Source: Candidatus Kapaibacterium sp.
Lineage (GTDB): Bacteria > Bacteroidota > Ignavibacteria > Kapaibacteriales > WFXC01
NCBI GenBank assembly: GCA_026996895.1
Contig: JALWJX010000028.1
Span: 678-64,677, forward strand
Direction: 5' to 3'
Length of the DNA: 64,000 nt
Positions 25,210 to 54,621 of the stretch are shown piece after piece (position 1 is the stretch's first letter; each line of letters starts with the position of its first letter). Below the pieces are notes generated by a model. It ran no database searches. It saw only the letters and a program-made list of their open reading frames with translations, and was not told where the DNA came from. A program made the position numbers and the translations under genes.

Positions 25210-26763
25210 CTACCGGGCATAAGCAATACTCCGCTTCTCCCGGATCACCGTAACCCGGATTTGTCCCGGATACTCCATCGTTTCTTCGATTCGCTTAGCG
25301 ATTTCGTGTGCGATGGTATCTGCCGTCAGATCATCGATTCGTTCGGGTTCGACGATTACCCGGATTTCCCGACCTGCCTGAATGGCATAGCTTTGCACTA
25401 CGCCCTCGAAACTGGAAGCAATTTCCTCCAGCGAAGTCAGCCGTTTAATGTAATGCTCCAGCGACTCACGTCGGGCGCCGGGCCGGGCACCACTAATCGC
25501 ATCGGCTGCCTGAACCAGAGCCGCTATGGGACTCATCATCTCCATCTCATCGTGATGGGAACCAATGGCATTGGCAACGATCGGATGCTCCCGATACCGC
25601 TTCGCAATTTCATAACCGATCAAGGCGTGTGGACCTTCTTCCTCCACACACTTCCCAATATCGTGGAGCAACCCTGCCCGCTTTGCCAGTCGAACATCCA
25701 GCCCCAATTCCGCTGCCATAATGGCTGCCAGGCGGGCAACTTCAATGGAGTGTGCTAACAGGTTCTGCCCGTAACTGTAACGATACTTCATTCGACCAAT
25801 GAGACGCACAATTTCCCGATGGACGTTGTGAATACCCAATTCCAGCAACGCCTGTTTTCCAACTTCCCGGATCTCATCCTCCATTTCTTTCTTCGTTTTG
25901 TTCACCACCTCCTCAATCCGGGACGGATGAATACGCCCATCGCTGACCAGGCGCTCCAGCGCCCGGCGCGCAATTTCACGACGGAGAGGATCAAAACAGG
26001 AAATCAGCACTGCTTCAGGGGTATCGTCAATGATGAGATCCACGCCGGTAGCTGCTTCAAAGGCACGAATATTCCGCCCTTCCCGTCCGATGATCCGCCC
26101 CTTCATCTCATCACTGGGTAGATTGACCACCGAAACAGTGTTTTCAATCGCATAATCCGTAGCAGTACGTTGAATCGCTTCCACCACGATCTTTTGCGCC
26201 TGCTTCTTCGCTTCTTCCCGCGCCTGATCCCGAATCTCCTTAATCATCAAAGCTGCTTCTGTTTTCGCTTCTTCGACCATTGAATCCAGCAAATACTTCT
26301 TTGCATCTTCCCGCGACATTCCGGTAATGCGTTCCAGGCGCACCAGTTGTTCTTCCCGCAATTGCTCTACTTCTTCCATCCGCTGCTGTACCTGTTGTTG
26401 TTGCTGCTGGAGCGACTGTTCCAGACTCTGTAACTGCTTTTCCTTATTGCTCAGCAGCTCCAGCTTTCGGGTGATCCGATCTTCTCGCTCTTTGATCTCC
26501 TTCTCATACGCTCGCAGCTTTTCGTGCCGATCCTGCATAATCTGATCAAATTCCCGCTTTTTCCGATCCCACTCCGCCTTGACTTCCAGCAGCTTTTCTT
26601 TTTTGAGAATCTCTCCCTCTTTTTCGGCATCCCGCAGAATGACCTTGGCACGTTCTTCCGCATCCCTGATTTTCATTTTCAAGGAACGCTGGACCAGCCA
26701 ATAGCCGACGCCTCCTCCCAGCAAGAAGCCAAGAATTGTCAACCCAACAATCCACCACTCCAT
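25210..26763 (-). CDS. rny: Ribonuclease Y
   Basis: N-terminal TM helix ([23 protein letters not shown]), coiled coil, KH domain ([26 protein letters not shown]) and HD domain ([24 protein letters not shown]). Start at the ATG at 26761..26763 with AAAGGAGA RBS 6 nt upstream. The ORF-track start at 26802 lies inside the upstream ncRNA terminator. Confidence 0.9.
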
Positions 26764-26800
26764 TGTTTTTCTCCTTTCCGACTTGCTGTTCGACATCATC

Positions 26801-27083
26801 AATAAAAAAGCCGCATCATTCTGTCTGCGCTTGTAATGAAGCGGATAGCTGGTAAGAACCCTTACCGGACACAGTGGGTGCTTGCCTGATTACCTTTTGC
26901 TTCCCCCGAACCCTGGGAACATCCGACTGGATGTTCACGGTGGATGACAGCGGGCCACCCACACGCAGGGTTACTGCTATGATAGCAGTTGGGGCCTGCA
27001 ATCAGCAACCAGAGCCAAGCTCCCTTTTCGTTGAAACTGTCGGTTCTTACCTTCGCTATAACGATCCGACAGAATGATGCGGC
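26801..27083 (-). ncRNA. Candidate structured ncRNA (about 283 nt) between zapA and rny; 6S (ssrS)-like position, family unassigned
   Basis: The 16-nt arms GACAGAAUGAUGCGGC (27068..27083) and GCCGCAUCAUUCUGUC (26810..26825) are perfectly complementary, and the 3' arm is followed by U6 on the minus strand (26804..26809). A second long-range stem is GGUAAGAACC (26851..26860) with GGUUCUUACC (27042..27051). Internal hairpins are at 26917..26936 (8 bp, GACU loop) and 26973..26989 (7 bp), plus GUGGGUG/CACCCAC pairing (26874..26880 with 26956..26962). No protein ORF in the region looks credible. Confidence 0.45.
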
Positions 27084-27132
27084 AAAGAAGCTTTGGCACT
27101 GTTACTGCCTGCTGAAGCTTCTATGGAAAAGA

Positions 27133-27429
27133 TCACCCATCTTCAGCAGTAGCATCCGCAAGCCGCTGCTGAAGAAACCCGGTCATTTTCTCAATTTCTT
27201 GTTCATAAAGTTTTATCTGCAATGCCATTTGCTCGCAGCGAACATCATATTCCTCTAACAGATTCAAAGCTGCTAAAACGGTGACGACTAAGGTTGAAAC
27301 TCGATCCTGCCGCTGCTTCATTTGCCGCATCATTTCGTCAAACCGGTGAGCCAGTCGCTGTACCCGTTCCGGATCCTCACAACGCAGTGTATACGTTTGC
27401 TCACCGATTTGCACTTGGACTGTTTCCAT
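27133..27429 (-). CDS. zapA: Cell division protein ZapA
   Basis: 98 aa. METVQVQIGEQTYTLRCEDPERVQRLAHRFDEMMRQMKQ.. followed by a C-terminal coiled coil is the ZapA architecture. Confidence 0.75.
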   Translation of the reverse strand: METVQVQIGEQTYTLRCEDPERVQRLAHRFDEMMRQMKQRQDRVSTLVVTVLAALNLLEEYDVRCEQMALQIKLYEQEIEKMTGFLQQRLADATAEDG

Positions 27430-27496: not shown

Positions 27497-28381
27497 TTAT
27501 TGATCCGCCGGATCGCGTGCCAGAATCTGATCCAAGCGCTGGAGTACTGTCACAATGCGTTGTTCCAGCCGCTGCTTCGCCTGCCGCTGCTCCTCTGACA
27601 ATTCCCGTTGAGATGACCGCTTTACTGCTGCCAGCTCGCTCTGCAACGCATCAATACGGAAGCGGTAGACCTCCAATTGCTCTTTGTATGCCTGCGCTTC
27701 CTGGTACCGTGCTTCCAGTTGCTCCAACTGGAGCTGGAGCCGGGCGTTTTCTTCCGCTAACCGTTCCACCTCTTTCCGTAATTGCTGTGCTTCCAGTTGG
27801 AGCTGCTGTTCCGCTAAGGCATCTTCCAGTTGCTGCAGTTGCTTGTGCAATCTATGCAGTTCCTCATTTTTCCGCACGATCTCCTTCTGCGCTAAGCGAT
27901 ACTCATACTGCACCTGCTGCACCTGTTCCTCCAGTTGCTGGAGCGTTTGCTGCAACCGCTCGTACTCCGTACGATAATGTTCGAGTTGCTGTTTGGACTC
28001 CTCCTGCTGCTGCTTCCACTGCTGACGATCCTGCTCCCACTGCTGACGTTGCTGGCGAAGCTGCTCCAATTCCTCTCGCAGGTTCTGCTCCTGGGCACGC
28101 TGTGCCCGCTCCTGTTCCAACTGCTCCTGCAACACTCTATGATGATGCTGTTCTAAGGCTGCCCGCGTTTTCCACTGATACAACTCCTGCTCCAATTGCC
28201 GAATCCGTTCCTCTTTTTCCTCCACTGCCGCTGCCAGCAGGCGATACGTTTCCAGTTCTTCAACCTGGCGCCGCAACCCGGCGTTTTCTTCTCTCAACGC
28301 CGCACACGTATCTGCCAGCCGCGGTAACTGCTCTCCAACTTGCTGAATAACGGTCCACAACGCTTGAAGCCGATCTTCCAT
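27497..28381 (-). CDS. Coiled-coil protein of unknown function (possible ZapA-associated/ZapB-like partner)
   Basis: 294 aa, almost entirely heptad-like Q/E/L/R repeats with no TM or enzymatic motif. It lies 67 nt upstream of zapA on the same strand. Confidence 0.55.
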   Translation of the reverse strand: MEDRLQALWTVIQQVGEQLPRLADTCAALREENAGLRRQVEELETYRLLAAAVEEKEERIRQLEQELYQWKTRAALEQHHHRVLQEQLEQERAQRAQEQNLREELEQLRQQRQQWEQDRQQWKQQQEESKQQLEHYRTEYERLQQTLQQLEEQVQQVQYEYRLAQKEIVRKNEELHRLHKQLQQLEDALAEQQLQLEAQQLRKEVERLAEENARLQLQLEQLEARYQEAQAYKEQLEVYRFRIDALQSELAAVKRSSQRELSEEQRQAKQRLEQRIVTVLQRLDQILARDPADQ

Positions 28382-54535: not shown

Positions 54536-54621
54536 TGCCCGGGGCGGGACTCGAACCCGCACGGGGAAAACTCCCCACAGGATTTTAAGTCCTGTGCGTC
54601 TACCAATTTCGCCACCCGGGC
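54536..54621 (-). tRNA. tRNA-Leu (anticodon UAA)
   Basis: On the minus strand it reads GCCCGGGTGGCGAAATTGGTAGACGCACAGGACTTAAAATCCTGTGGGGAGTTTTCCCCGTGCGGGTTCGAGTCCCGCCCCGGGCA. It has a 7-bp acceptor stem, anticodon stem CAGGA/TCCTG with loop CTTAAAA (anticodon TAA), a long class II variable arm and a T-loop TTCGAGT. CCA is not encoded. Confidence 0.9.

Follow-up and report, generated by a model that had tools for sequence, protein, structure and literature searches.

The window, that is, the whole 64,000-nucleotide stretch of DNA that was analysed, carries on its minus strand zapA, a strongly folded element and rny, the gene for RNase Y. Both flanking genes and their common strand had been named in the original prediction, which was made from the letters alone, and both are borne out by protein domains. 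The prediction had also placed the DNA in the Bacteroidota, and the closest genome record agrees: the rny protein of the window is 99% identical to one of a Candidatus Kapaibacterium sp. genome bin, which NCBI taxonomy assigns to that phylum. The parts of the locus, except those of the apical domain, are as follows, with the RNA numbered from nt 1 (27083) to nt 274 (26810).

27133-27429, minus: zapA, upstream neighbour; Pfam PF05164 on a near-identical (99% identical) protein
26810..27083, minus: predicted mature 6S RNA (ssrS), 274 nt; fold, same ends in homologues and core model
27068..27083, minus: closing stem P1, 5' arm, nt 1-16; perfect 16-bp complement of 26810-26825
nt 25-29 with 235-239, minus: short helix between P1 and P2; MFE structure
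27042..27051, minus: P2 5' strand, nt 33-42, GGUAAGAACC, bordering the central bubble on the closing-stem side; repeat and MFE
27025..27041, minus: central bubble 5' strand, nt 43-59, 17 nt; unpaired in MFE and centroid structures
26991..27024, minus: internal stem 5' strand, nt 60-93, GGGAGCUUGG...CAGGCCCC; Rfam 6S positions 61-93
26876..26907, minus: internal stem 3' strand, nt 177-208, GGGGGAAGCAAAAGG...GCACCC; Rfam alignment and covariation
26861..26875, minus: central bubble 3' strand, nt 209-223, 15 nt, ACUGUGUCCGGUAAG; MFE, Rfam alignment and core model
26851..26860, minus: P2 3' strand, nt 224-233, GGUUCUUACC; repeat, MFE and covariation
26828..26843, minus: extra small hairpin, nt 241-256, on the 3' strand between P2/P1b and P1; MFE structure
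26810..26825, minus: closing stem P1, 3' arm, nt 259-274; inverted repeat and covariation
26804..26809, minus: U6 tract after P1; sequence
25210-26763, minus: rny (RNase Y), downstream neighbour; RNase_Y_N, KH and HD domains

Overall, the element is a 274-nt rod (27083..26810, minus) with a perfect 16-bp closing helix and U6 next to it. The two arms of this helix (26810-26825 / 27068-27083), which had been predicted to be perfectly complementary and about 240 nt apart, are so at a spacing of 242 nt, and TTTTTT (26809-26804, minus strand) stands directly 3' of the 3' arm, as had also been claimed. By our own arithmetic, chance alone would yield about 3e-5 perfect inverted repeats of 16 nt within 500 nt. 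The long-range 10-bp stem (26851-26860 / 27042-27051) was recovered as perfect, and at least three perfect internal hairpins had been counted, of which two are indeed perfect (26973-26989 and 26917-26936) but the third (26938-26965) has 9 bp, 2 of these G-U. The length had been put at about 283 nt; the element is longer and more branched than canonical 6S RNA, as stated, but measures 274 nt plus up to 6 U.

When the minus strand of 26795-27095 is folded, its MFE is -133 kcal/mol compared with -91.0 +/- 5.4 for dinucleotide shuffles (z = -7.83), and none of 100 shuffles is as stable. The MFE structure contains the 6S-like central bubble for which folding had been suggested as a check (17/15 nt). 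Its 5' strand is also unpaired in the RNAalifold consensus of 6S homologues, and its 3' strand with the flanking CCC agrees with the Rfam consensus gcaCCCAC. Beyond the bubble, the internal stem is interrupted and comprises about 26 bp (nt 60-93 with 177-208; MFE). The small hairpin at 26828..26843 is lineage-specific and variable in form, and hairpins of differing sequence occupy the same place in two relatives (L081 and L087). At the 3' end, P1 and U6 together look, from their sequence, like a long-range intrinsic terminator.

The view that no credible reading frame lies in the element was confirmed: ORFs of 40-67 aa are present, none of them is conserved, and indels in relatives that are not multiples of three, placed in hairpin loops, break their frames and rule them out as genes. 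In the case of rny, the longest ORF begins with a TTG at 26802, overlaps the U-tract and would encode 530 aa. By comparison with homologues, however, the true start is the ATG at 26763, because the homologues are 517-527 aa long and this ATG is preceded by an AGGAG ribosome-binding site at 26771-26775. The distance from the U-tract to rny, originally given as 38 nt, is thereby corrected to 40 nt. In one metagenome assembly of a relative with a 94% identical ZapA (L083, 3153-4704), rny is called as two ORFs of 256 and 266 aa, which points to a frameshift or an assembly error. On the other side, immediately upstream of zapA, lies a Q/E-rich, coiled-coil-looking ORF of 294 aa without a Pfam domain (27497-28381, minus), and genes of similar size with no confident Pfam domain occupy the same position in L081, L082, L086 and L087, with a faint TMF_DNA_bd match in L087. 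This ORF may encode a ZapB analogue, an idea suggested by its position, which is that of ZapB in proteobacterial zapB-zapA-ssrS arrays.

Relatives of the element and covariation of its helices

Relatives were collected through the ZapA and RNase Y proteins, and all of them have zapA, then a gap of 280-560 nt, then rny. In every case the gap holds the element, starting with GCCGCATC and ending with GATGCGGC and a T-run. In addition, metagenome contigs were searched with a motif taken from the 3' half, which yielded 120 loci. The ends of the RNA are the same in Kapaibacteria and Ignavibacteria homologues. RNAduplex was abandoned for defining these ends since it over-extended into the flanks, and a stricter helix-plus-T-run search was used instead; it found the closing helix followed by at least 4 T in 104 of 132 loci, a count for which the T-run was required by design and in which a few 5' ends are still wrong.

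The original prediction had proposed covariation in zapA-rny homologues as a check, and covariation is found. In a model-based alignment of 100 sequences, 92.3% of cells in the core pair, and double changes occur in 21 of 34 core pairs as opposed to 7-10 in slid controls, while 0 of 500 shuffles reach the covariation score. The P2 pairing AAGAAC/GUUCUU is conserved in the 100 homologues, with double changes in 8 of 10 pairs, and the internal stem has double changes in 10 of 16 pairs. Moreover, when the window structure is imposed on a MAFFT alignment of 26 full-length sequences, double changes are seen in 37 of 57 pairs and the covariation score reaches 0.353, compared with 0.105 or less in slid controls, with strong signal in the internal stem and in the outer nine P1 pairs, which covary across these 26 diverse homologues. 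To judge from the alignments, the helices are maintained by compensatory substitutions.

In the Ignavibacteria-like group (L108, L194, L122 and some 40 further metagenomic loci of this kind), the RNA is closely preceded by a conserved segment, for example GTACGGAT...ATCCGCAC, that is able to pair with the P1 5' arm and seems to covary with it, as in L194 with CGGAAA/TTTCCG. A leader hairpin may form here as an alternative and play a part in processing or folding. The window has no equivalent upstream segment overlapping P1.

Homology to 6S RNA and the branched apical domain

At the gathering threshold, Rfam finds in the whole window a single RNA, a tRNA, and no 6S, 6S-Flavo, RNase P, tmRNA or SRP RNA. 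The tRNA (54536-54621, minus; 63.4 bits) has a long variable arm and, from its anticodon loop CUUAAAA, is probably tRNA-Leu(UAA). When the cutoff for the element's region was relaxed to E <= 10, a partial match to Rfam 6S (RF00013) emerged, with model positions 61-129 on 26878-27022 and an 82-nt gap at the apex (12.2 bits, E = 4.2). A covariance-model search had been proposed as a check on a 6S-type RNA; in it, the partial match to 6S stays well below the 6S gathering score of 46.4 bits. A mir-760 match in the region, also at E <= 10, was dismissed as a chance match. Consistent with the earlier failure to see RNase P, SRP or tmRNA signatures, these families and 6S-Flavo (RF01685) have no match at E <= 10 in 26700-27200.

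The link to 6S RNA becomes apparent through intermediate sequences. The zapA-rny slot of Melioribacter roseus holds an RNA that matches Rfam 6S positions 1-187 with a 32-nt apical gap (39 bits, E = 1.3e-4). Twenty loci, 14 of them from the motif scan, were tested with Rfam, and six are full-length 6S matches (67.6, 48.1, 47.9, 44.2, 41.7 and 36.7 bits); the score drops as the apical insert grows, and the locus with 67.6 bits (L099) has zapA upstream and rny downstream. A core covariance model of 138 positions, covering P2, the bubble and the internal stem, was then built only from seven seed sequences, each a full-length match to Rfam 6S (positions 1-187) and three with more bits than the gathering score. 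In the window this model has a sole match in 64 kb, at 26849-27053 (minus) over positions 1-138, with 91.6 bits and E = 2.7e-20, of which a part arises by construction because the seeds were retrieved by this clade's 3'-half motif; the 5' half lies outside that motif. The model matches all 100 related loci searched, and among further rny loci, searched over 488 kb, it is significant in two Melioribacter loci only. By way of these intermediates, and with the same caveat about the seeds, the element falls within the 6S family.

Sequence-level 6S homology extends over both halves of the core (GGGAGC...CAGGCC, GGAAG...GCACCCAC and GGUUCUU). The secondary structure is likewise that of 6S RNA, from P1 and P2 through a bubble with strands of 17 and 15 nt to the internal stem (about 26 bp), and departs from it in the branched apex; RNAalifold gives the same consensus structure on homologues. 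From these sequence comparisons, the element is homologous to 6S RNAs and keeps their closing stem, central bubble and internal stem. The suggestion of a 6S-type stable RNA in a zapA-ssrS-like arrangement has thus been upheld by architecture, consensus blocks, genomic slot and core model together. The explanation that best accounts for the whole, and which we regard as very probably correct, is that the zapA-rny element is the 6S RNA (ssrS) gene of a Kapaibacterium, probably transcribed with zapA and provided with a terminator-like 3' end, with rny probably expressed by read-through. A 6S RNA of Ignavibacteria or Kapaibacteria, or a branched 6S apex (three-way junction), was not found in the literature that could be searched, although an earlier mention in Wehner et al. 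2014 or Barrick et al. 2005 is possible.

The prominent peculiarity of this RNA is its apex, where the following parts are predicted.

26908..26990, minus: expanded apical domain, 83 nt, nt 94-176; MFE structure
26973-26989, minus: apical hairpin H1, nt 95-111; MFE structure, perfect hairpin
26966-26972 with 26909-26915, minus: apical stem S2, 7 bp, nt 112-118 with 169-175; MFE structure
26938-26965, minus: apical hairpin H2a, nt 119-146, enclosed by S2; MFE structure
26917-26936, minus: apical hairpin H2b, nt 148-167, enclosed by S2; MFE structure

This domain coincides with the 82-nt gap in the Rfam 6S alignment. The expansion begins at the canonical loop position, and the stem beneath it keeps its canonical length. 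Among four relatives, 96.9% of cells in the apical helices are paired and compensatory changes occur in 10 of 33 pairs, as compared with at most 2 in slid controls; for example, GAACAUCC/GGAUGUUC is replaced by GAACACCG/CGGUGUUC and by GAACGCUG/CAGCGUUC in relatives. According to the structural model, a branched domain of 83 nt, comprising one hairpin and a stem with two more, stands here in place of the canonical 6S apical loop. Across 100 aligned homologues, the length of the domain lies between 10 and 96 nt (median 62 nt), and two apical hairpins are predicted in 67 and three in 15. The longest domains (88-96 nt) belong to the lineage of the window, together with L081, L082, L086 and L087, in which the second apical hairpin has been elaborated into a stem carrying two hairpins. 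In the E. coli 6S complex, the internal stem takes the place of downstream DNA. The insertion sits at the far, apical end of that stem and therefore should project out of the enzyme, so that polymerase binding would be undisturbed.

Gene context, rival readings and proposed mechanism

The zapA and rny genes are frequent companions of this RNA. In the window, zapA is immediately upstream, a position that supports a 6S assignment but does not define one, and it is upstream in 100 of 110 related loci with enough flank, while rny is downstream in 89 of 106. The linkage of ssrS to a preceding zapA is documented in β- and γ-proteobacteria (PMC7641849). Exceptions to the neighbourhood are mostly 6S genes of canonical size that have a TTGACT-N17-TATTAT promoter to themselves and share the closing-stem/U-run end. 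One such group of about 180-190 nt (L114, L116, L118, L120, L141, L186, L201, L207 and L209), with zapA and rny both absent nearby, has a closing stem CCCTGCA...TGCAGGG with a T-run directly after it. A self-terminating closing stem thus occurs outside the zapA-rny context as well.

On the minus strand of the window, no sigma-70-type promoter or local terminator was found, in a scan for the sigma-70 consensus, and Bacteroidota can use another. A Bacteroidetes-type TAnnTTTG promoter upstream was considered by eye and rejected: only TTTG is present, it is unconserved in relatives, and the start would fall inside P1. Between the zapA stop codon and nt 1 of the RNA, a hairpin can be drawn (27087-27122, minus; AGAAGCUU...AAGCUUCU, inner GGCA/UGCC), and L081 has a hairpin of other sequence at the equivalent place. 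As a candidate structure, the hairpin of the window was discarded, its energy being not significant (z = -1.5), and the same was the case for pairing downstream of the U-tract (z = -0.65).

It may be asked whether the element is simply a cis-acting leader or attenuator of rny, in which the long-range helix and U6 would form a regulated terminator, for instance in autoregulation through RNase Y cleavage, and no trans-acting RNA would be made. The original prediction had offered such a leader as its alternative, and the frequency of rny behind the element and the lack of room for a promoter in the 40 nt between U-tract and rny start speak in its favour. As a sole function, however, it does not fit the relatives: the element is homologous to RNAs that match Rfam 6S over the full length, related RNAs with this core and closing-stem/U-run end stand behind a TTGACT-N17-TATTAT promoter of their own, with neither rny nor zapA nearby, and rny is missing from the vicinity of about 15 related loci that have their own promoter, so that the RNA is neither always attached to the gene nor always without an independent transcription unit, as a leader would be. 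Moreover, riboswitch and leader families have no Rfam match in the region at E up to 10, and the element is absent from the rny loci of Clostridia, Chloroflexota, Thermotogota and other phyla, where the core model found nothing significant (best E = 0.15). We thus regard a leader-only role as improbable. Besides the 6S function, the terminator-like end may have a secondary effect in cis on rny expression.

Another RNA class with only the shape of 6S has also been weighed, either a binder of core polymerase like Ms1 or an sRNA derived from the zapA 3'-UTR. Such a class would agree with the length of 274 nt, which is nearer to Ms1 (about 300 nt) than to canonical 6S, with the outcome of the promoter scan and with an Rfam 6S score below threshold. 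Nevertheless, the sequence homology to 6S runs through both core halves, the apical length is graded from the canonical 10 nt to 96 nt within one alignable family, and no other Rfam family matches at E <= 10 save the chance mir-760, all of which leaves this reading with hardly any probability.

The 6S RNA interpretation carries a mechanism with it. The biology of 6S RNA, including open-promoter mimicry, holoenzyme sequestration and release by product RNA, has been reviewed (PMC10578484, PMC8414754, PMC7641849). By analogy, the Kapaibacterium RNA would mimic an open promoter and occupy the active-site cleft of the housekeeping sigma-A RNA polymerase holoenzyme, and with slower growth transcription would be damped through polymerase sequestration, which we infer to be the function of the element. 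The 5' bubble strand (nt 43-59), whose counterpart is the template for product RNA in characterised 6S RNAs, would then serve, again by analogy, as template for a short product RNA, with P2 being unzipped and the RNA released. In this regard, a rearrangement hairpin like those of model 6S RNAs can form at 26851-26867 (minus; -7.2 kcal/mol): GGUAAG in the 3' bubble strand duplicates the six bases that open the P2 5' strand and is able to pair with CUUACC in the P2 3' strand. Predictions give this hairpin for the near-identical L082 as well and an analogous one for L003, but none for most relatives, so that its conservation is not consistent (mean z -0.8).

As for its synthesis, the 6S RNA is probably cotranscribed with zapA, since no sigma-70-type promoter was found between the two, and its 5' end would be cut out by processing. 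At the other end, the P1 3' arm would pair with the 5' arm and be followed by U6, generating a 3' end as at an intrinsic terminator; in this model, the closing helix and U6 are probably a leaky terminator ahead of rny. With the rny start just 40 nt beyond the U-tract, read-through of the P1-U6 terminator is the probable route to rny expression, and RNase Y synthesis would be coupled to 6S transcription and folding. The proposal of a terminator with read-through is drawn from anatomy only. A further step, which we offer tentatively and consider rather unlikely, would make the gene bifunctional: a trans-acting 6S RNA and at the same time a folding-dependent leaky terminator that sets the level of RNase Y made from a zapA-ssrS-rny transcript, with RNase Y helping to excise or degrade the 6S RNA and the branched apical domain acting as an added binding or stability module. 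If true, this would establish a feedback loop between a global transcription brake and the main mRNA-decay nuclease. In B. subtilis, decay of 6S-1 is initiated by a cut in its apical loop (PMC10578484); the window RNA has no such loop.

Significance and comparison with known systems

In summary, the Kapaibacterium RNA is a structural variant of the known 6S family, with a branched apex, a self-terminating closing helix and rny as its partner, which the current Rfam model misses. It falls below the Rfam threshold because of the branched apical expansion, and the same threshold leaves out Kapaibacteria 6S RNAs and most Ignavibacteria-like ones, so that standard pipelines report such genomes as 6S-free. 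At its tip, the 6S rod accommodates anything from 10 to 96 nt and as many as three hairpins, whereas its polymerase-mimicking core hardly changes. Furthermore, the zapA-ssrS linkage extends from proteobacteria to the Bacteroidota side, and the conserved ssrS-rny junction may couple the expression of 6S RNA and RNase Y. Although the kind of RNA is itself unsurprising, the results are of use for annotation and for knowing which parts of 6S vary freely, and the alignments could seed an improved 6S family model.

In common with 6S/SsrS (RF00013; E. coli SsrS and B. subtilis 6S-1), the window RNA has a closing stem, a central bubble and a long internal stem, as well as the conserved blocks flanking the bubble, and like β- and γ-proteobacterial 6S it lies directly downstream of zapA (PMC7641849). 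A protein gene follows directly and is probably co-transcribed both here and in E. coli ssrS-ygfA, the latter as far as that arrangement is cited in PMC7641849, but the gene is rny in the window and not ygfA. Unlike canonical 6S, the window RNA is 274 nt long instead of about 180-200, it has an 83-nt domain with three hairpins in place of the apical loop and an extra hairpin in the closing-stem region, and its closing helix is joined directly to a U-tract, which gives it the look of a built-in intrinsic terminator. Against the RF00013 model it reaches only 12 bits, in a partial match.

The 6S RNAs of Ignavibacteria and Melioribacter-like bacteria (L003, L107, L182 and about 80 metagenomic loci) share with it the zapA-6S-rny slot, the core sequence and the closing-stem/U-run end. 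Their apex is likewise branched, with two predicted hairpins in 67 of 100, whereas the closing helix of the window is longer, a perfect 16 bp. Within the same phylum, Flavobacteriia have a 6S-like RNA, 6S-Flavo (RF01685). The window RNA has no match to it at E <= 10 and aligns to classical 6S instead. Ms1 of actinobacteria is an RNA of about 300 nt with a rod-like fold and a bubble, and it binds core RNA polymerase, not the holoenzyme. Ms1 RNA is mentioned in PMC11077062. It resembles the window RNA in size and in its rod-with-bubble fold, but no sequence similarity between the two was detected, whereas the window RNA is tied to 6S by homology.
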